From Escherichia phage teqsoen: a stretch of DNA of 64,000 nt. Every line of letters begins with the position of its first letter. The stretch's first letter is position 1. Below are positions 1 through 45,078 of the stretch, piece after piece. The position numbers and the translations under genes are program-made. The stretch is taken from the sequence record MN895436.1, one strand, 5' to 3'. A model generated the notes under the pieces. It made no database searches. It saw only the letters and a list, made by a program, of their open reading frames with translations, and was not told the DNA's origin.

Positions 1-188
1 AATTCGACCTGCTTCTCACCATAATCATATCGAATCTCTGCGTTAAATTCAACAGACCCATCTGCGTGCATCATAAATGAATGCACAACAACTTCTGTAG
101 ACCAGGGTTGCAATTCATATTTCTTCATTACATGCCGTGAAATGATAATATCTAAATCTTCATTTGGTTTAATCCAGCGATTTAACAT
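1..188 (-). CDS. hypothetical protein, 5' portion only (continues beyond window start)
   Basis: ATG at 188 preceded by GAGGAG; open to window edge. Confidence 0.4.
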   Translation of the reverse strand, partial: MLNRWIKPNEDLDIIISRHVMKKYELQPWSTEVVVHSFMMHADGSVEFNAEIRYDYGEKQVE

Positions 189-254
189 AGTGCTCTCCTC
201 TATAAGATAATTCTATTATACCATACTCATTTTGGAAAGTAAACCATTTAAATG

Positions 255-278
255 AAAAAAGGACTCCCGAAGGAGTCC
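255..278 (-). terminator. hairpin terminator downstream of soc
   Basis: GGACTCC-CGAA-GGAGTCC stem-loop followed by T-run on minus strand. Confidence 0.7.
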
Positions 279-284
279 TTGAAT

Positions 285-530
285 TTATTCACCAGTTACT
301 TTCCACAAATCTTCGTTTGCAGTAATCCATTCAGTACGTTGATTTTCTTCATATACTGTAGAATATGCTGCTTTTTCTGAAGGGAATATCTGGTAATGAG
401 CGCCAGAAATTTTATGAACGTCAGAATAAAGAGGGAAAGCTACAGAAATTTCCTTTCCTTCAATTTTCTTATTTCCATCTAATTTTTGCTCAAATGTTTT
501 AATATTAACATAACCGCGAGTACTAGCCAT
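285..530 (-). CDS. soc: small outer capsid protein Soc
   Basis: 81 aa; matches T4 Soc as I recall it (MASTRGYVNIKTFEQKLDGNKK...). Confidence 0.9.
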   Translation of the reverse strand: MASTRGYVNIKTFEQKLDGNKKIEGKEISVAFPLYSDVHKISGAHYQIFPSEKAAYSTVYEENQRTEWITANEDLWKVTGE

Positions 531-546
531 GTAATTCTCCTTTTAT

Positions 547-756
547 TTAAATTACATGACTATTTATAATAAATTCTCGCGGAACGTTAAAATACCCAAT
601 TTTAGTTAATATAACAACATCACCGTTAATAATTACCGGAGAATAATCTTCTGGAGCATTAAATTTCCAATGGGCTCTAATATTATATCCATCAGAACCA
701 AATGCTCGAGTAGCCGGTCTCCCGGCTTTTTGCCACGCGTAGAAATCAAATTTCAT
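547..756 (-). CDS. hypothetical protein (soc.1 position)
   Basis: 69-aa ORF tightly packed between soc and next ORF. Confidence 0.55.
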   Translation of the reverse strand: MKFDFYAWQKAGRPATRAFGSDGYNIRAHWKFNAPEDYSPVIINGDVVILTKIGYFNVPREFIINSHVI

Positions 757-947
757 TTTGAATGCTCTATAATTAATTTTAAAGCTTCTTCACTGACAAA
801 AATTTCGTCAGGACCTTCTATAACTTCAACCATACGAAGTTGATTAGTTAAGAGCTCACATACGAGCTCCTTGTTATAATCTTTAAATAGCTGGTCAATA
901 CGTTTCTTATGGGCTTTCTTAAGCTGACGCTTATTTAAACGAGCCAT
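753..947 (-). CDS. hypothetical protein (soc.2 position)
   Basis: 64-aa ORF, start overlaps stop of gene 56. Confidence 0.55.
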   Translation of the reverse strand: MARLNKRQLKKAHKKRIDQLFKDYNKELVCELLTNQLRMVEVIEGPDEIFVSEEALKLIIEHSK

Positions 948-1465
948 TAATAACCTCGGTCTTGACGAGCGAAGTTTTCAGCATTTTTCAGGTAATAAAG
1001 TTTAAAGATTTCTTCAGCTGACATTCCAAGAGCAATAAATTTATTCATGAAAAAATGAAATTGGTCAATAAGTTCAAATTTAATTTCAAGCTGATCTTCG
1101 GGAGATAAATCTTGAATTTTCTTGGATTGCATTTCAGAATAACGTTTCTTCCAAGGTTTCCATACAGCAGAAGCTTCTTTTTCGCCATTACTCATACCAC
1201 CGAGAGAAGTATATAGCTCGCGAGTTTCGTCTGCGATATAATCGTCTTGGTTTCGCAGCCAAGCAAGAACTTCTCCTGCAGTTTCAAGTGAATCAGGATG
1301 ACGATTTGTTTCTGGTTTATCATTAGCCAAACGAATCTGTAAATGCCGCTGCATGTCAAGCATAACCTGCAGTGGGTCAATATTGTGCATAATATTCTCA
1401 GCATATGCACGATTTGCTTTATCAACACCTTCGATCAAATGAGCGCATTCATTAAAGTAAGCCAT
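947..1465 (-). CDS. 56: dCTP/dUTP pyrophosphatase (gene 56)
   Basis: T4 gp56-like from MAYFNECAHLIEG; start set at internal ATG 1465, not the GTG at 1558 of the track. Confidence 0.85.
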   Translation of the reverse strand: MAYFNECAHLIEGVDKANRAYAENIMHNIDPLQVMLDMQRHLQIRLANDKPETNRHPDSLETAGEVLAWLRNQDDYIADETRELYTSLGGMSNGEKEASAVWKPWKKRYSEMQSKKIQDLSPEDQLEIKFELIDQFHFFMNKFIALGMSAEEIFKLYYLKNAENFARQDRGY

Positions 1466-1536
1466 TATTTTTCCTTTCAATTCATGGGTTAGTAGATTAA
1501 TTATACAATAAATATATAAAGCAATAAGGAGGACAT

Positions 1537-1737
1537 ATGGTACAAAAATTAATGGCACTTGTTAATGCCATAAAAGGTAATAAAAAACGTATAGCTTTTA
1601 CTATTTCTGCTATGGTAGGAATTTTACTCTGGAACTTTATTTTATCACCAATTGCAATTGCGCATGGTGTTAATATTCCAGTAGTTACTCTTGATACATT
1701 CGTAGATCTAGCATTTGCTTTAGTTGGGTTAATTTAA
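1537..1737 (+). CDS. small hydrophobic protein
   Basis: 66 aa, two hydrophobic segments, AAGGAGG 6 nt upstream of ATG; plus strand inside a minus-strand early region. Confidence 0.45.
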   Translation: MVQKLMALVNAIKGNKKRIAFTISAMVGILLWNFILSPIAIAHGVNIPVVTLDTFVDLAFALVGLI

Positions 1738-2762
1738 ATCTTGGCATATTTAGATAGCCGCATTTTAGCCATCAACCCCTGGGCAATATTATTTTTCATA
1801 TATTCCATAATTTGTTCAGGGGTTGCACCTTCCTTTCTAATCATATCATTGACATCTTTTGATTTCCAGGGAGATTTATCCCAAAACATAACCCTTTCTC
1901 CTGCATCAACTAATTTAGTCATTCGTTTGATAGTGTCAGGGTGACGAGGTTCATTATCTAAAACCCACACTCGTCTATCTTTAAATGGAACAACTTCTAG
2001 GTCTAATTGACCACCCGTAATAGCTATACCATTTTCAATAAAAAGTGAATCTATAGGTCCTTCTAGAACATATACATCACCATCTTTAACTCGTTCGACT
2101 CCATATATTTTTGTTGCCTCAGGATAAGCTTTAATGGTGATATACTTTTGTGGAGCATCTTTCTTTAATGCGCGTCCTTGAAAAGACTCAGCCTTTCCGT
2201 TAGCATTATAAATTGGAATAACAAGACGAGGCTCAGGTATTTCCTTTTTATATGTTCCCGGTACTATGCTATTAACTAATTTAGGCCATTCGGTTGTAAA
2301 CCAAAGATATTTCCATTTATCCTTTGGAATACAACGAGCTTTTACATATTTTATAATTGGATGGTCTTCCACCAGTTTATCTAATCTAACACATGACGGA
2401 AGAGATTTAATTATTTTCTTCTCAGGATGTTTGGGAAGTTCTTTAGGTTTTTCTACTGGACGACTTTTACCTTTTTCTTTTCTTATTTCAAAGATATACT
2501 CACGATATAAATCAGGTTCAAACTCCTTTAAATATATTCCGATTGGTGCATGATAGTTACAGTTATAACAATGAATATTTCCTTCATTATTATCACCATA
2601 ATACCATCCACGAGCTTTATTCTGGTCGGTTTTTGAATCTCCGCAAACAGGGCATCTAAACCGTAATTTAAAAGTTGAACTATTATTTACTTGTGTGAAT
2701 TTAGGTAAATGAGCTAATGCACGATACGCAAACTCATTATCAATCCAAGGTACTGATGACAT
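1734..2762 (-). CDS. 61: DNA primase (gene 61)
   Basis: 342 aa; Zn-ribbon CPVCGDS...CYNC; N-terminus matches T4 gp61. Confidence 0.93.
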   Translation of the reverse strand: MSSVPWIDNEFAYRALAHLPKFTQVNNSSTFKLRFRCPVCGDSKTDQNKARGWYYGDNNEGNIHCYNCNYHAPIGIYLKEFEPDLYREYIFEIRKEKGKSRPVEKPKELPKHPEKKIIKSLPSCVRLDKLVEDHPIIKYVKARCIPKDKWKYLWFTTEWPKLVNSIVPGTYKKEIPEPRLVIPIYNANGKAESFQGRALKKDAPQKYITIKAYPEATKIYGVERVKDGDVYVLEGPIDSLFIENGIAITGGQLDLEVVPFKDRRVWVLDNEPRHPDTIKRMTKLVDAGERVMFWDKSPWKSKDVNDMIRKEGATPEQIMEYMKNNIAQGLMAKMRLSKYAKI

Positions 2763-2928
2763 TTTTACTCTTCTTTTTCTTTAGATTCCTCTTTTTCTTT
2801 TTAGGAATCTGTTCAGGACCTTTATTTACTACAGCGCCCGACGTTGTTCCAGTAGAGATATTTTCAGGATTACCACCTGAATCTCCAGCTACCATATCTT
2901 CTTTAATAAATTCTTTATATGTTTTCAT
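2740..2928 (-). CDS. small basic protein with capsid-targeting-like N-terminus
   Basis: 62 aa; MKTYKEFIKE then Gly/Thr-rich segment and Lys-rich tail; ATG 4 nt after upstream stop. Confidence 0.5.
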   Translation of the reverse strand: MKTYKEFIKEDMVAGDSGGNPENISTGTTSGAVVNKGPEQIPKKKKRNLKKKKSKNVISTLD

Positions 2929-2974
2929 ATTAACCTCTATTCATAAAAGCATTAAAAATTTGGTCATCAATCGA
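2926..2974. repeat. 49-bp direct repeat copy 1 (gene 3' end + RBS + ATG)
   Basis: 47/49 identical to 3284-3332. Confidence 0.8.
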
Positions 2975-3286
2975 TGGAATAGCAACTTTTTCTGCATCAT
3001 TTAGCAAATCATTAATTTCATCGGATAGCATAACACATGTACCTTTATTTCCTGTAATTGTTACTGCGCAATTACGAACGTTTTCTTTATCAAATTTTAG
3101 GTTAATATTTTCGTAGTGAAAATCCTTTAATGCCGAATATATCTTTAAAATGAAATTGTCTTTTACTACAATAAACCCAACCTCACTATTAAAACGTGGT
3201 TCATGGAAACTGTAATAAACCTTTTCATCTATAAAATCGTATGAAATTTTTTCCATTTTTAAATATGAAAATTCAGAACTATACAT
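2930..3286 (-). CDS. hypothetical protein (61.1 position)
   Basis: 118 aa; C-terminus SIDDQIFNAFMNRG shared with upstream ORF. Confidence 0.6.
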   Translation of the reverse strand: MYSSEFSYLKMEKISYDFIDEKVYYSFHEPRFNSEVGFIVVKDNFILKIYSALKDFHYENINLKFDKENVRNCAVTITGNKGTCVMLSDEINDLLNDAEKVAIPSIDDQIFNAFMNRG

Positions 3287-3332
3287 ATTAACCTTTATTC
3301 ATAAAAGCATTAAAAATTTGGTCATCAATAGA
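3284..3332. repeat. 49-bp direct repeat copy 2
   Basis: 47/49 identical to 2926-2974. Confidence 0.8.
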
Positions 3333-3914
3333 AACATTTACTTTAGACTGTTTTTCTGATGGTAATTCATATCCACATATTACAATTTTGTGATCAATAT
3401 CAAAATACACAGAAGCAATATGATTAATGATGTTTTCAGTAAAGTCTAAATCAACATCAATATCTTTTTGACCACAGCCCAAAGGATAAATAATGCGAGT
3501 AATTCGATTATCTTTAACAAATATTCCACCGACATACTCTGTGCTGCGTTTAAAGTCTACATGCCGACGAAATGAAAAATATTCAGGCTCTCTATGAGCT
3601 CGGCTCATAGGACACAACGAGTAACTAGAATAAGAGATGTCAAATCCTACGCCTTCAATATGAGCCAAAGTGTCATGATTAAACCAATTATAATCGTACG
3701 CCAAATCCATTAGATTATAATATGTAAAAGGCACCGGATTAACATCATTAGTCACAAGCATGTAATTAGCAACTGCTATAATTTCATTGTTTTTAACGAA
3801 TACAAACCGTGATTGATGTGAATGACCTGGACCCACGTTTTCACGATTAATGATATAACACTGGGCACCTTTATATTTGTATGTATCTTTGCATTTGTGC
3901 ATTTGATAGAGCAT
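3288..3914 (-). CDS. hypothetical protein (61.2 position)
   Basis: 208 aa; C-terminus SIDDQIFNAFMNKG; stop/start coupled with sp. Confidence 0.6.
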   Translation of the reverse strand: MLYQMHKCKDTYKYKGAQCYIINRENVGPGHSHQSRFVFVKNNEIIAVANYMLVTNDVNPVPFTYYNLMDLAYDYNWFNHDTLAHIEGVGFDISYSSYSLCPMSRAHREPEYFSFRRHVDFKRSTEYVGGIFVKDNRITRIIYPLGCGQKDIDVDLDFTENIINHIASVYFDIDHKIVICGYELPSEKQSKVNVSIDDQIFNAFMNKG

Positions 3915-4207
3915 TATTCACCTACCACTTCAGCGATGATATTTTTGTTATTAAAGTTTTTATCGCAATACAGAACATAATTATACTGCATTACACCACC
4001 AGACTTAAGCTGTTTTTGCACTTCAGCTTTCATTTCAGGGCGATCGCGCTCAACGATATTCATAATATCTGCTTCAATTTGAGTTTCAACCTCAGTCTGA
4101 TCCGCAGTCATAGACCATTCGCACAAATCTTTATCATAACCTGCCATAGCAGGCTGAGCAGCACAAGAAGCTAAAGCAAAAATTGTGGCAAAGATAAATT
4201 TTTTCAT
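3914..4207 (-). CDS. sp: Spackle periplasmic protein (superinfection exclusion, inhibitor of gp5 lysozyme)
   Basis: 97 aa with signal peptide MKKFIFATIFALASCAAQPAMA; T4 Sp-like. Confidence 0.85.
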   Translation of the reverse strand: MKKFIFATIFALASCAAQPAMAGYDKDLCEWSMTADQTEVETQIEADIMNIVERDRPEMKAEVQKQLKSGGVMQYNYVLYCDKNFNNKNIIAEVVGE

Positions 4208-4235
4208 GATAATCTCCTCAGTAGTTTATGTTTAT

Positions 4236-4265
4236 ATAGTATCTCAATTTCCAACAAAAGTAAAC
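4236..4265 (-). promoter_or_regulatory. early promoter upstream of sp
   Basis: GTTTAC, 18-nt spacer, TACTAT on minus strand; GAGGAG RBS downstream. Confidence 0.6.
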
Positions 4266-4267
4266 AG

Positions 4268-4525
4268 TTATTTTAAAACTTCTGCGTAATCACATGTTAC
4301 AAACTGTTTCTCTAGCTTGACGATTTTACGAAAGTATCTTTTGCATTGGCGAATCTGCCGCTTCGTGGGGCGAACAGCAAACTTAATAAATTCCACTCGA
4401 CCAAATGGAGGACTTTCTTCTGCTGGAATATCTAGCACCAATTCCCACGTATCTGCAATAAGTGCTTTGAATTGCGTATTTTTCCTGACGTTATACGGTG
4501 TAGGTTTAAATAAAACAATATGCAT
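4268..4525 (-). CDS. hypothetical protein (61.4 position, next to dmd)
   Basis: 85 aa from ATG 4525 (GAGGA upstream), 1 nt after dmd stop; track ORF extends to 4567. Confidence 0.6.
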   Translation of the reverse strand: MHIVLFKPTPYNVRKNTQFKALIADTWELVLDIPAEESPPFGRVEFIKFAVRPTKRQIRQCKRYFRKIVKLEKQFVTCDYAEVLK

Positions 4526-4526
4526 A

Positions 4527-4709
4527 TTATCCTCGGCAATCCACTTCACATACTTTCTTGTCATCAATGAAAGCTTTAACTAATGCTTTATTAACTTCAG
4601 CATATTGAGTAGTAGCCCATTGAACGTCATCTTTCATCATTGTGGTTTCTTTAGTAAACATGCTTTCATTCTTAAACCACCCCATAAAAACTACCTTTAC
4701 CAATTCCAT
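4527..4709 (-). CDS. dmd: Dmd, antitoxin against host RnlA/LsoA
   Basis: 60 aa, matches T4 Dmd (MELVKVVFMGWFKNESMFTKE...). Confidence 0.88.
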   Translation of the reverse strand: MELVKVVFMGWFKNESMFTKETTMMKDDVQWATTQYAEVNKALVKAFIDDKKVCEVDCRG

Positions 4710-4737
4710 AACAATCTCCTATTTAACCAACAAGACT

Positions 4738-4767
4738 ACTATACCATAGTCTTGTCAGCTTGTAAAC
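4738..4767 (-). promoter_or_regulatory. early promoter upstream of dmd
   Basis: GTTTAC, 18 nt, TGgTATAGT on minus strand. Confidence 0.7.
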
Positions 4768-6194
4768 TAAAATTTTAATTCATTTGCCAAAGCATCTAAC
4801 TGAGCTCGAGTGGATTCATTTCTTTGATAGCGATTCTGCTCAGCCTGAATCTGTTGTGAACCTGCTACTTCACTCACTTCAGTTGGAGTAGAATCTTGTT
4901 CAATTTCTACCCATTTTTGATTTCCTTTTTGAACACCCATCAAAAACTTATTCCACTTATTCTTATCACCATATCGTGATTTGATTTGCTTAATGAGTTG
5001 CTGTTCAGCAGCTGCTAGCTCCTCGGTTTCAATGACCGCAAGCATAAAATCAGCGGTTGCTGGAAGACCAGCAGATTCTGCAATATCGCTCATGTTAACA
5101 TCGGAAGAGTCCCAAGCTTGTTTACCAACCTGTGCTGCAGTCCAAAGAACAGTTTCGGTTTCAACAGCCAGAGCACGCAATTCCTCTGCGATAGCTTTAA
5201 CAGTTGTGTAACTATTTTCTGAGTAAACTCTAATGCGGCAAGATTTACAAATACCTAGATAGTCGACAATAATGATTGTTGGAACAAAATTCTTCTTGAG
5301 CTTTAATTCATTTAAAAGTGATCGAAATGTATTAGCGTCTGCTCCACCAGTAGGATATTGCTTAACGATTAAACGACCAAGGGTAGATTTCTCACGCCAT
5401 TTTTCCATTTTTCCTTTATATTCAGCGTAAGAAATATGTCCATCATCAATGTCATCAAGAGAAACATCAAGCATGTTAGCGTCAATACGCTTAGCACAGA
5501 CTTCTTCTGCCATTTCCATGGAGATATAAAGAACGTTATGACCAAGCTGCAAATAATCTGCTGCTAATGAACAAAGTCCTAATGATTTACCAACGTTAAC
5601 GCCAGCCATTAAAACGTTCAGTGTTCCAGTTTCAGCTCCGCCTTTAGTAATTTTGTTTAGAATTCTGAGTTTAAATGGAACCTTACGAGCTTTATTCATA
5701 TAAGATAGCCAACGCGCTTCATAGTCATCCATCCAATCATGACCAACGTAGCTATCAAATGAAATTGATAATGCTTGGCGCATGATGTCAGGAATAGCAC
5801 CTACATCTGGCATTTTCTTATTTCGTTTTTCCGGAGGAAGCTCAGCATTAGTTTGAATTTCGATTATTTTAGATGTAGCATTAAACATCGCCCTTTGCTG
5901 AACATATTTTTCTGTTTCTTTTACTAACCAGCTGTGGTCTTCTGGAGAATCAGCCAGTTTTGAAATAAGTGTTTTTACACCAGAATATTCTGTTTCAGTA
6001 AATGAACTATTTTCTAATGCAACATTTAACGCATTAATAGATGGAACGCTATGATACTCATTAACATGAGATTTAATTAATTTGAATGTATTTTTAGCTG
6101 GACCACTTTCAAAATATTCTGAATCCATATATGGCCAAACTTTTGAAAAATAAGCTTGATCAAATATGAGATGAGAAAGAATAATTTCTACCAC
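4767..6194 (-). CDS. 41: replicative DNA helicase (gene 41)
   Basis: 475 aa; DnaB-family Walker A GVNVGKS; T4 gp41 length. Confidence 0.94.
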   Translation of the reverse strand: MVEIILSHLIFDQAYFSKVWPYMDSEYFESGPAKNTFKLIKSHVNEYHSVPSINALNVALENSSFTETEYSGVKTLISKLADSPEDHSWLVKETEKYVQQRAMFNATSKIIEIQTNAELPPEKRNKKMPDVGAIPDIMRQALSISFDSYVGHDWMDDYEARWLSYMNKARKVPFKLRILNKITKGGAETGTLNVLMAGVNVGKSLGLCSLAADYLQLGHNVLYISMEMAEEVCAKRIDANMLDVSLDDIDDGHISYAEYKGKMEKWREKSTLGRLIVKQYPTGGADANTFRSLLNELKLKKNFVPTIIIVDYLGICKSCRIRVYSENSYTTVKAIAEELRALAVETETVLWTAAQVGKQAWDSSDVNMSDIAESAGLPATADFMLAVIETEELAAAEQQLIKQIKSRYGDKNKWNKFLMGVQKGNQKWVEIEQDSTPTEVSEVAGSQQIQAEQNRYQRNESTRAQLDALANELKF

Positions 6195-42457: not shown

Positions 42458-42643
42458 TTAAAGCGTATTCACATAAGCTATTAATTCATTTTCTTTCTTA
42501 TCAAACCGATCAGCAAATTCTTCCTGCTGTTCGGGAGATAGCGGGCCGTATTCATCATAAAAGGTGTTTGCTTCTATATGCTCATCTAGAAGTTCATGGA
42601 TAAGCTCAAACAATTTATCTTTTTGTTCTTTACTCAGACTCAT
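42458..42643 (-). CDS. hypothetical protein
   Basis: 61-aa acidic ORF. Confidence 0.5.
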   Translation of the reverse strand: MSLSKEQKDKLFELIHELLDEHIEANTFYDEYGPLSPEQQEEFADRFDKKENELIAYVNTL

Positions 42644-42809
42644 ATATTAATTTCCAGGAGTTTTAAAATAATTCGCTTTTGCTTAAATATTTCCATAGTT
42701 AAATGACCAGTATCTTTTTGACCGATTCCAATGGCAAAACCTTTATTAACAGCGAGTTCAATTAAATTATCAAGCTCACGTAACACTTCGTATTGTAACT
42801 CAAAACTAT

Positions 42810-43037
42810 TCATTTTGATTTACCTTCTTTAACGAAATCAGGATAAGGATAAAATCCTGAATAAAATCCTTCACCTTTATGATTGATGCATCCTTTATTA
42901 GAACAATAGCACCAATAATCGAAATCACAAGCCATTTCATCATTACATAAAGCAAAAACAACAGGCCATTTACACTTTTCACAATGGGCATTTTTAAGAA
43001 TACTAGTTTGGCTCATAACCATGTAACCTTTAAGCAA
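42810..43037 (-). CDS. cysteine-rich small protein
   Basis: 75 aa with 10 Cys. Confidence 0.45.
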   Translation of the reverse strand: MLKGYMVMSQTSILKNAHCEKCKWPVVFALCNDEMACDFDYWCYCSNKGCINHKGEGFYSGFYPYPDFVKEGKSK

Positions 43038-43225
43038 TATTCTTCTACATGTTGTTTACGACCTTTCTTATCAATAAAGGTATATTCAACGAATGTTCCA
43101 ATGTAGTCTTTATCTACATCATGTGGACTATTAATTGGACATTTAGTACGGCAAATGCGTTCCCATTGACGAATAATTTCCACTTTGTTTTTAGGATCAA
43201 ACGGATGTGGGTAATGTACTTTCAT
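43013..43225 (-). CDS. hypothetical protein
   Basis: 70-aa ORF. Confidence 0.45.
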   Translation of the reverse strand: MKVHYPHPFDPKNKVEIIRQWERICRTKCPINSPHDVDKDYIGTFVEYTFIDKKGRKQHVEEYCLKVTWL

Positions 43226-43676
43226 AATCCACCACTATTAAATCAATATCAGGAGTAAACATGTCGATTAATTTAGAAACCTTATCCCAATCGCCGCCAG
43301 CAATACCACAACCTATGCGTGGAATGTAAATTACTGGTTTAAACAAAAGGGTTTCTGCCTGTAGATTTAATTCTATCATGCAGTTTACTAAAGCACCATA
43401 ATCAAGATTAGGACCTGGTTCGTATTGCGTATACAGGTTATAGCATATACCAAAACCATTAGGTTTATGTTTAAAAACAATAGACATATCGCCTAATTTA
43501 TCACGAGAACCGTACTCAGTAGTGGTTTTATCTATTTCTAAAATTTTGGGATAGGCTCTTGCTAATTGACCAGCTACACCTGAACCCATAGTATGAAAAC
43601 AATTGCACCCGTGCGCAATAATATTACCTTGAAGAAATAGGGCGACAATATCGCCCTTGATATATTTTACAATCAT
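43197..43676 (-). CDS. macro-domain-like protein
   Basis: 159 aa; N-x6-GSGVAG and IGCGIAGG motifs resembling macro-domain ADP-ribose-binding loops. Confidence 0.6.
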   Translation of the reverse strand: MIVKYIKGDIVALFLQGNIIAHGCNCFHTMGSGVAGQLARAYPKILEIDKTTTEYGSRDKLGDMSIVFKHKPNGFGICYNLYTQYEPGPNLDYGALVNCMIELNLQAETLLFKPVIYIPRIGCGIAGGDWDKVSKLIDMFTPDIDLIVVDYESTLPTSV

Positions 43677-44014
43677 CTAGTACTCAATCCTCGATTATAA
43701 GAATCTACCAAACGGTCAACCATTGAATGACAAGCGGCTTTATCTTTCTCCTCCGCAACTGAACATTCTAAGGTATTCCACTTTTTAGCATATCGTTTTA
43801 ACAATGTATCATTTTTGTATCTGCTTGATTTATCTCTTTCTCCGTCTTTATATGCATATATTAATTTCTGCGCAAATTCAGCTTGGCATGCTTTATTTTT
43901 CCCGCAATAATCCGCTGCAGTACGGTTTACATACTCTCTAATTTCAGTATATGATGTATCTGCTAACGCAGAAAATGAAATTAATCCTATACATAAAACC
44001 AAAATTTTAGTCAT
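43673..44014 (-). CDS. secreted protein
   Basis: 113 aa with cleavable signal peptide, 4 Cys. Confidence 0.5.
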   Translation of the reverse strand: MTKILVLCIGLISFSALADTSYTEIREYVNRTAADYCGKNKACQAEFAQKLIYAYKDGERDKSSRYKNDTLLKRYAKKWNTLECSVAEEKDKAACHSMVDRLVDSYNRGLSTR

Positions 44015-44552
44015 TTACTATTTCCAAAAGTTTATTATTTTTAAGGTAATTAGCCTTTTCTAGGACTTCAGAAGCATATTTAGAACCTGCTTTAACATTC
44101 CATCCCGAATTATAAGAGGATATTGCTTTTCTTATATCGCCCTTATGTATATTTAACCAATAAGAAAGTTCAATGTACGCCCAGGAAGCTGAATTGGACC
44201 GTTTATTCAACATTCTTTTTATTTCAGCATCGGTCATATTATAACCAAGTTCCTTAACTCTTGCTCGCATAGTAGGCAAATAATTTTGGAACATTCCGTA
44301 GGCGTGATGCTTTGCTTTAGATTTTAAATTAACTCCGCCAGAGCTTTCTTGCCATAAAATAGCAGCCATTATATGACCCAATCCGCTCTTGTGGATATTT
44401 TTGTGTGTTTTATATTTTCCATCCTTAGAAAATTGTTCCCCGAATTGATACGCGTAACGCATGTTATCGAGTTGGACATTACTGAAAGTATGCTCGGAGC
44501 TATGTGCCATCATTGAAATGGCCAATAGACCAGCGAGTAGTGCTTTTCTCAT
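44007..44552 (-). CDS. periplasmic lytic transglycosylase (SLT domain)
   Basis: 181 aa; signal peptide; motifs WQESSGG, AYGMFQ, SYNSG. Confidence 0.75.
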   Translation of the reverse strand: MRKALLAGLLAISMMAHSSEHTFSNVQLDNMRYAYQFGEQFSKDGKYKTHKNIHKSGLGHIMAAILWQESSGGVNLKSKAKHHAYGMFQNYLPTMRARVKELGYNMTDAEIKRMLNKRSNSASWAYIELSYWLNIHKGDIRKAISSYNSGWNVKAGSKYASEVLEKANYLKNNKLLEIVND

Positions 44553-44559
44553 GCTTACC

Positions 44560-45021
44560 TCATTGAGTTTTAATTACTGCTTTAGAAGCCTTTCCTGGTA
44601 AACGACGACTGTTGATAATTGCCATCCTGCATTGAAGTGACGGGTCTTTGAACTTCTCATTAGGCTTACAAACCGTAAATCCAAGCCAAAGATTTCCATC
44701 TGTGATTTCTAAACGTCCAGGACGATATTCAACCCCATCAATAAAATCCTCGTCAATGTCAGGACGCGGAGGCATACTCAGGAATTCATTAACTTCTAAA
44801 ACATGGTCTTTTATTTTATGGAATAATTCAAAAACATATGTCTCATCAATCTCCCGTTGAATTGCACGATCAAGAAGATGTTGAGAATATTTTAGATGAA
44901 ACGATGAGACTCCTGCTGCTTTTGATGCCTCACGAATCTCATTGTTAATTTGACGAAACTCCGACTCAAAGTGACGACGAAGCTTATTTCGACGGATAAA
45001 AACTTCTGTATTGATAGTCAT
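44560..45021 (-). CDS. regB: RegB endoribonuclease
   Basis: 153 aa; T4 RegB length and position; own early promoter. Confidence 0.85.
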   Translation of the reverse strand: MTINTEVFIRRNKLRRHFESEFRQINNEIREASKAAGVSSFHLKYSQHLLDRAIQREIDETYVFELFHKIKDHVLEVNEFLSMPPRPDIDEDFIDGVEYRPGRLEITDGNLWLGFTVCKPNEKFKDPSLQCRMAIINSRRLPGKASKAVIKTQ

Positions 45022-45048: not shown

Positions 45049-45078
45049 ATTATACCACAGTCAAGAGGAAAAGTAAAC
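45049..45078 (-). promoter_or_regulatory. early promoter upstream of regB
   Basis: GTTTAC, 18 nt, TGgTATAAT; AGAGGAG RBS follows. Confidence 0.75.

Follow-up and report, generated by a model that had tools for sequence, protein, structure and literature searches.

What does a small stand-alone macrodomain protein encoded between tk and regB in Escherichia phage teqsoen act on, and with which type of active site? The window analyzed here is a 64,000-nucleotide stretch of that phage (MN895436.1), and an initial annotation, made from sequence alone, had noted at 43197-43676 a 159-amino-acid (aa) open reading frame (ORF) encoding a macrodomain-like protein that could reverse ADP-ribosylation-based host defense. 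The ORF is real, begins with ATG, and lies on the minus strand:

tk.4/adfM allele: 43197-43676, minus strand; ATG-to-stop ORF for a 159-aa stand-alone macrodomain

The tk.4 ATG overlaps the stop codon of the gene vs as ATGA (43673-43676), and the N terminus of the protein, MIVKYIKGD, lines up with those of its homologues. Pfam Macro (PF01661) matched the protein at 33.1 bits (gathering cutoff, 22; E value, 6e-8) over profile positions 2 to 117 of 118, a macrodomain match well above chance, and PHROG 335 matched it with an E value of 1e-71. Binding of ADP-ribose is predicted from two glycine-rich loops, G31-S-G-V-A-G36 and I121-G-C-G-I-A-G-G128. Both loops had been recognized at the outset, as N-x6-GSGVAG and IGCGIAGG, and only the spacing requires a trivial correction, as five residues rather than six separate N25 from G31 (N-x5-GSGVAG).

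Structure prediction, proposed earlier as the check on the macrodomain idea, gave the same picture. AlphaFold run on the single sequence reached a pLDDT of 36.8, and a model built from a 51-sequence alignment, in which the T4 row was swapped for a database homologue, was then used (pLDDT, 93.9; pTM, 0.88). The predicted model is a three-layer alpha/beta/alpha macro fold, and Foldseek matched it in the PDB to TARG1, Poa1p, BT1257, SCO6735, and the DarG proteins of Thermus aquaticus and Mycobacterium tuberculosis, each with a probability of 1.00 and TM scores of 0.68 to 0.73. Through its matches to TARG1, Poa1p, DarG, and SCO6735, the protein as modeled belongs to the ALC1/TARG1-like class, to which it is closer in both structure and sequence than to the MacroD, PARG, macroH2A, or viral nsP3 classes. 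Fold, PF01661, and PHROG 335 together bear out the macrodomain-like designation, and the fold mismatch that had been named as its refutation did not occur.

The position of the gene identifies it further. In T4 (NC_000866), the gene order at this slot is regB - vs.1 - vs - tk.4 - tk.3 - tk.2 - tk.1 - tk, and the assignment to the tk-regB interval holds, with the order here being that of the T4 tk.4 slot. The genes on the vs side are as follows:

regB: 44560-45021, minus strand; upstream in the same transcription unit (43673..45021)
vs.1: 44007-44552, minus strand; SLT transglycosylase domain (25.4 bits; cutoff, 21.3)
vs: 43673-44014, minus strand; 97% identical to T4 vs, annotated valyl-tRNA synthetase modifier

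With the same gene order and with flanks 93 to 100% identical, the ORF is the positional orthologue of T4 tk.4. The two proteins share the slot (regB-vs.1-vs-tk.4-tk.3-...-tk), the fold family, and the invariant residues H22, N25, Q84, G122, and G124, and they are similar in length (155 aa in T4 versus 159 aa here). In contrast to their neighbors, they are only 57% identical (57.4%); the diphosphate loop reads IGAGIGKG in T4 and IGCGIAGG here, and the window protein has a 4-residue C-terminal extension overlapping tk.3 by 29 nucleotides (nt).

The ORF is thus the allele of T4 tk.4 (adfM) in this Tequatrovirus, and a function has already been published for the T4 orthologue. The T4 record (NC_000866) annotates tk.4 as "phosphatase; contains A1pp phosphatase motif". 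In the HIDEN-SEQ preprint of November 2025, tk.4 was the sole significant hit when a library of T4 transposon mutants was screened on a host with DarTG2, and a clean tk.4 knockout sensitized T4 to DarTG2; because its deletion has this effect, the gene was renamed adfM (anti-DarT factor Macrodomain), with enzymatic removal of ADP-ribose from DNA as the proposed activity (10.1101/2025.11.20.689424). In addition, T4 without both adfA and adfN stays resistant to DarTG2 (PMC11825919), from which a further factor is predicted, and adfM fits. The idea that this macrodomain could reverse ADP-ribosylation-based defense is therefore supported by the DarTG2 sensitivity of the T4 deletion, and it is not new. 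For T4, the support consists of genetic evidence in a preprint, obtained with an allele that has only 57% identity and a different diphosphate loop; DarTG2 counterdefense by the window allele may reasonably be expected by analogy. The gene would then be the T-even answer to DarTG2, beside AdfN and AdfA against DarTG1, and such DNA ADP-ribose erasers decide whether DarTG-carrying bacteria resist T4-like phages, therapeutic ones included. A chimallivirus macrodomain, PhiKZ gp104, is also named AdfM and was biochemically shown to remove DarT2-made ADP-ribose from DNA (PMC13309987, Cell Rep 2026).

AdfN is T4 gene 30.3 (PMC11825919). By its position on the T4 map, the AdfN gene presumably falls outside the window, of which positions 1-6000 were inspected for it.

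The type of active site was approached by taking the sequences of solved relatives from PDB alignments and aligning them with the phage family, with 120 homologues used for residue counts. Three segments carry the comparison:

HGCN motif codons (H22-G23-C24-N25): 43601..43613, minus strand; aligned with SCO6735 H24-V25-C26-N27
N80-L-Y-T-Q84 codons: 43425..43439, minus strand; placed by profile-to-TARG1 and family alignments
I121-G-C-G-I-A-G-G128 codons: 43293..43316, minus strand; diphosphate-binding loop, placed by alignments

Gln84 occupies the column of the catalytic lysines of TARG1 (Lys84), DarG (Lys80), and PhiKZ gp104 (in FPTK), and the same column holds the essential Gln85 of Streptomyces coelicolor SCO6735 (PDB 5E3B) and a Gln in Bacteroides BT1257 (2AFC/2FG1). 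All 120 homologues have Gln at this position, and H22 and N25 are kept in 118, the remaining two being gapped there; C26, D49, and Y82 are invariant residues specific to the phage family. The tk.4 protein and SCO6735 share the signature H-x-C-N, N-x-x-x-Q, and IGCGxAGG, and the loop P-R/K-I-G-C/A-G-I/L-A-G-G-x-W is common to the phage family, SCO6735, and BT1257. Thus, H22, N25, Q84, G124 (SCO6735 G128 in the alignment), and IGCGIAGG are all features of the SCO6735/BT1257 type, even though identity with these two proteins is only 26 to 29%. SCO6735 cleaves thymidine-linked ADP-ribose from DNA, and this activity is abolished by Q85A and nearly abolished by N27S; its authors propose that the N27-held Gln positions the ribose and that a water held by the V25 backbone initiates cleavage (PMC9411070). 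Differences from SCO6735 are also evident. The tk.4 protein lacks the lysines K34 and K89 with which SCO6735 positions DNA, having S32 at the K34 position. Its loop following Q84 is 4 to 6 residues shorter than the extended mobile loop of SCO6735 that carries K89 and contains no Lys. Furthermore, SCO6735 is cellular and DNA damage inducible, whereas tk.4 is a predicted phage counterdefense factor.

The differences from the Lys-type proteins are of another kind. In DarG (T. aquaticus, 5M31; M. tuberculosis, 5M3I) and PhiKZ gp104, the catalytic Lys stands where the tk.4 protein has Gln84, the His22 position is taken by Asn and Ile, respectively, and a loop of the form L-G-x-G/A-N-G-G-L replaces IGCGIAGG. 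Human TARG1/OARD1 (4J5R) relies on a K84/D125 dyad; the corresponding pair in the tk.4 protein is Q84/A126, Ala126 sitting where TARG1 has Asp125. BLAST scores follow the same division: the tk.4 protein scored 59 bits against BT1257, 52 against SCO6735, 42 against M. tuberculosis DarG, and 23 against PhiKZ gp104, whereas PhiKZ gp104 scored 82 to 97 bits against DarG. On these pairwise scores, the two proteins named AdfM appear to represent different macrodomain lineages of one class. Because the invariant Gln84 replaces Lys and the signature is that of SCO6735, T-even AdfM is best described as SCO6735-like and not as an orphan DarG. What the present analysis adds is the Gln-type active-site assignment, the separation of T-even AdfM from the Lys-type proteins DarG and PhiKZ AdfM, and, as described below, an allele replacement with sharp boundaries. 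In practical terms, inhibitor or mechanism work built on DarG may not transfer to the T-even macrodomain, as its site is a Gln of the SCO6735 type and not a Lys.

Genomic context also separates tk.4 from DarG. DarG is about 340 to 350 aa long with a C-terminal DarT-binding domain that the 159-aa tk.4 protein lacks, and the DarG equivalog NF048014 matched the tk.4 protein at only 27.8 bits (cutoff, 250), over profile positions 2 to 142 of 338; PADLOC and NCBIfam gave subthreshold matches to the DarG macro region only. DarG genes adjoin DarT (DUF4433), whereas the neighbors of tk.4 are vs and tk.3, and a tblastn search with one DarT query, which has limited sensitivity, found DarT within 5 kb of a Gln-type homologue at none of 80 bacterial loci. 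Among plasmids, strong tblastn matches were all stand-alone macro proteins, and true DarTG loci (macro plus DUF4433) appeared at E values of about 3e-4 or weaker. One of these plasmids, Haliscomenobacter hydrossis pHALHY02, carries at 1860-3565 a complete DarT-DarG operon of the DarTG2 type whose two genes bear only the annotations "DUF4433 domain-containing protein" and "macro domain-containing protein"; the pair scored 218.8 bits (DarT) and 415.7 bits (DarG) against the NCBIfam equivalogs, and the locus was used to recover DarG sequences for alignment. The best plasmid match, a 43% identical macro homologue, lies on CP057073.1 (Escherichia coli "plasmid" pRHB39-C03_2; 137.6 kb). Over 8.4 kb, this record shares 98.9% identity with rV5-like phages such as vb_EcoM_bov10K2, and it is a misfiled phage genome rather than a plasmid. 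Other macro homologues were found under genes annotated "SLOG family protein" on plasmids of about 235 to 240 kb from Bacillus thuringiensis and Cytobacillus oceanisediminis; SLOG and macro domains may thus be fused or adjacent in plasmids of the Bacillus group.

The boundaries vs.1/vs and vs/tk.4 both overlap. Nearby, a single strong sigma-70-like site was seen, immediately upstream of regB, in a region where the total count of such sites in a consensus scan was not above chance:

promoter-like site: 45049..45077, minus strand; sigma-70 type, TTTACT-17-TATAAT with TG, 10 of 12 consensus matches

The overlapping boundaries and this candidate early promoter suggest early cotranscription of regB-vs.1-vs-tk.4. 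The secreted protein and the lytic transglycosylase that had been noted next to the macrodomain gene (43673-44552) are both real, being vs and vs.1, but they lie upstream and not downstream of it in the order of transcription. By eye, vs and vs.1 have N termini resembling Sec-type signal peptides (MTKILVLCIGLISFSALA/DT and MRKALLAGLLAISMMAHS). Such a start sits uneasily with a cytoplasmic role in modifying valyl-tRNA synthetase, so either the annotation of vs or its predicted localization needs a second look; vs has been reported as conditionally important in minimal medium (10.1101/2025.11.20.689424).

The reading that we favor, at a probability of roughly 0.78, is that tk.4 encodes an early-made macrodomain enzyme that removes DarT2-placed thymine-N3 ADP-ribose by SCO6735-type catalysis and so defeats DarTG2. 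The regB-vs.1-vs-tk.4 unit would supply the enzyme, probably early in infection; host DarT2 would place ADP-ribose on thymine N3 of single-stranded phage DNA; and the enzyme, a predicted DNA thymidine-N3 ADP-ribosylglycohydrolase, would hydrolyze the N-glycosidic bond joining ADP-ribose to thymine N3, which would restore replication and overcome the abortive-infection defense. In the active site, Asn25-held Gln84 would position the distal ribose and a backbone-held water would initiate cleavage, most likely as in SCO6735 and by a mechanism different from the Lys-based one of DarG and TARG1. T4 genetics and SCO6735 biochemistry together point to thymidine-ADP-ribosylated (T-ADPr) DNA as the probable substrate. 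T4-type DNA has glucosyl-hydroxymethylcytosine in place of cytosine. Since the DarT2 modification motif, TNTC, contains a cytosine (PMC13309987), direct modification of T-even DNA by DarT2 is assumed here from the phenotype.

The historical T4 annotation embodies a different view, in which the protein would be a small-molecule phosphatase or esterase resembling yeast Poa1p (6LFQ), a soluble Appr-1''-p phosphatase, and would act on ADP-ribose-1''-phosphate or O-acetyl-ADP-ribose, disposing of by-products that RNA repair or sirtuin reactions form from NAD. The sequence similarity of the tk.4 protein to Poa1p is of the same order as that to SCO6735, and H23, one of the Poa1p residues mutated by the depositors, aligns with invariant H22. 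However, Poa1p S30, also mutated, aligns with the variable T29; a literature search for the roles of these 6LFQ-series mutants (H23 and S30) found no paper. The T4 annotation, moreover, was assigned by homology only, and the sole recorded tk.4 phenotype is specific to DarTG2, which leaves this view unlikely. To our knowledge, T4 has no Tpt1/KptA-type 2'-phosphotransferase and thus no source of Appr>p. RNA repair by T4 Rnl1 and Pnkp leaves no 2'-phosphate.

Alternatively, DarT2 might be neutralized mainly by stoichiometric binding of the toxin or of its single-stranded DNA (ssDNA) substrate rather than by hydrolysis, with the divergent tk.4 patch as an adaptation to DarT2 variants. This is conceivable because SCO6735 Q85A, although catalytically dead, retains the ability to inhibit DarT in vitro and does so more strongly than DarG or TARG1 mutants (PMC9411070), and the extreme divergence of tk.4 alleles within otherwise near-identical genomes would be in keeping with it. 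Against this, the DarT-binding domain of DarG is missing from tk.4, as its length and NF048014 score reflect, and the invariance of the active-site residues across 120 homologues indicates selection for catalysis; we therefore give the binding explanation very little credence.

Similarly improbable is the view that the targets freed of ADP-ribose by the enzyme are RNA (N3-uridine) or proteins, modified by another host ADP-ribosyltransferase (ART) or by phage Alt, ModA, or ModB, with DarTG2 protection as a side activity. SCO6735, DarG, and TARG1 do also hydrolyze ADP-ribosylated uridine (U-ADPr) on ssRNA (PMC13036486), and SCO6735 also acts on Glu/Asp-ADPr protein (PMC9411070). T-even phages nevertheless reportedly stay sensitive to the mRNA ADP-ribosyltransferase CmdT (PMC11618068), and the adenine modification made by CmdT has to date been reported to be irreversible (PMC13036486). 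In addition, E. coli has no known host U-ADPr defense. The idea that the enzyme undoes the Alt/Mod modifications made by the phage itself was rejected on linkage chemistry, as Alt, ModA, and ModB modify arginine and we know of no TARG1-class macrodomain that cleaves the arginine-ADP-ribose linkage.

Returning to the predicted thymidine-directed hydrolase, its gene differs strikingly between isolates. A 2.7-kb region around it shares 99.9% identity with several Tequatrovirus genomes, among them REP1, teqhal, and vB_EcoM_R5505; 748 phage records match, and in these the ORF is annotated "hypothetical protein", "phosphatase", or "macro domain protein". Protein identities to T4 along the locus are as follows:

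rI.-1: 100%
rI: 100%
tk: 99.5%
tk.3: 92.9%
tk.4: 57.4%
vs: 97.4%
vs.1: 99.4%
regB: 100%

These per-gene values and sliding-window DNA identity to T4 delimit the divergence:

mosaic patch: 43190..43654, minus strand; low identity to T4 confined to tk.4

In 60-nt windows, DNA identity to T4 stayed at 100% down to position 43655 and was then 82% over 43535-43654 and 45 to 70% over 43192-43534; the range just outside the patch was 95 to 100% on the vs side and 87 to 100% on the tk.3 side. This amounts to replacement of the tk.4 allele alone. Of the records in the phage collection, 318 were at least 90% identical to the window allele, 117 were 60 to 80% identical, and 2,337 were below 60%, the band that includes the T4-type alleles (about 57%). 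Natural allele classes lie at about 100, 76 to 81, 62 to 65, and 57% identity. Alleles occur in Straboviridae-type, rV5-like, Felix O1-like, Pseudomonas, Vibrio, Campylobacter, and other phages, and all alleles keep the active-site residues. It is possible, although we regard it as doubtful, that T4-type AdfM is a separate Gln-type (SCO6735/BT1257-like) lineage, not a captured DarG, that reached its counterdefense role independently of Lys-type PhiKZ AdfM, and that the tk.4 patch is an arms-race cassette whose alleles differ in the DarT2 variants or the ADP-ribosylated bases or nucleic acids that they neutralize. The very different natural tk.4 alleles among Tequatrovirus isolates could shift host range on DarTG2-carrying bacteria.

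Three further features of the locus deserve mention. A match to the T4 middle-promoter consensus of the MotA-box type, TGCTTTA-N12-TAGAAT, lies inside tk.4 (43370-43395, minus strand). The window contains 18 such matches (expected, about 5), almost all of them on the minus strand, and a consensus scan of the corresponding T4 locus found none; the tk.4 match could drive tk.3-tk in the window allele or could be due to chance. Codons 7 to 13 of tk.4 contain a GC-rich inverted repeat of 8 bp (AGGGCGAT att GTCGCCCT; 43639-43657), which has a terminator-like score on both strands and is probably a coding coincidence. Lastly, replacement with respect to T4 is seen in the tk.1/tk.2 interval as well (42458-43037, minus strand). 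There, the ORF at 42458-42643 shares only 54% identity with T4 tk.2, nothing in the T4 locus matches that at 42640-42813, and a zinc-binding ORF at 42810-43016/43037 (Pfam PF23895; E value, 1e-28), located between tk.2 and tk.3, is extra compared with T4.
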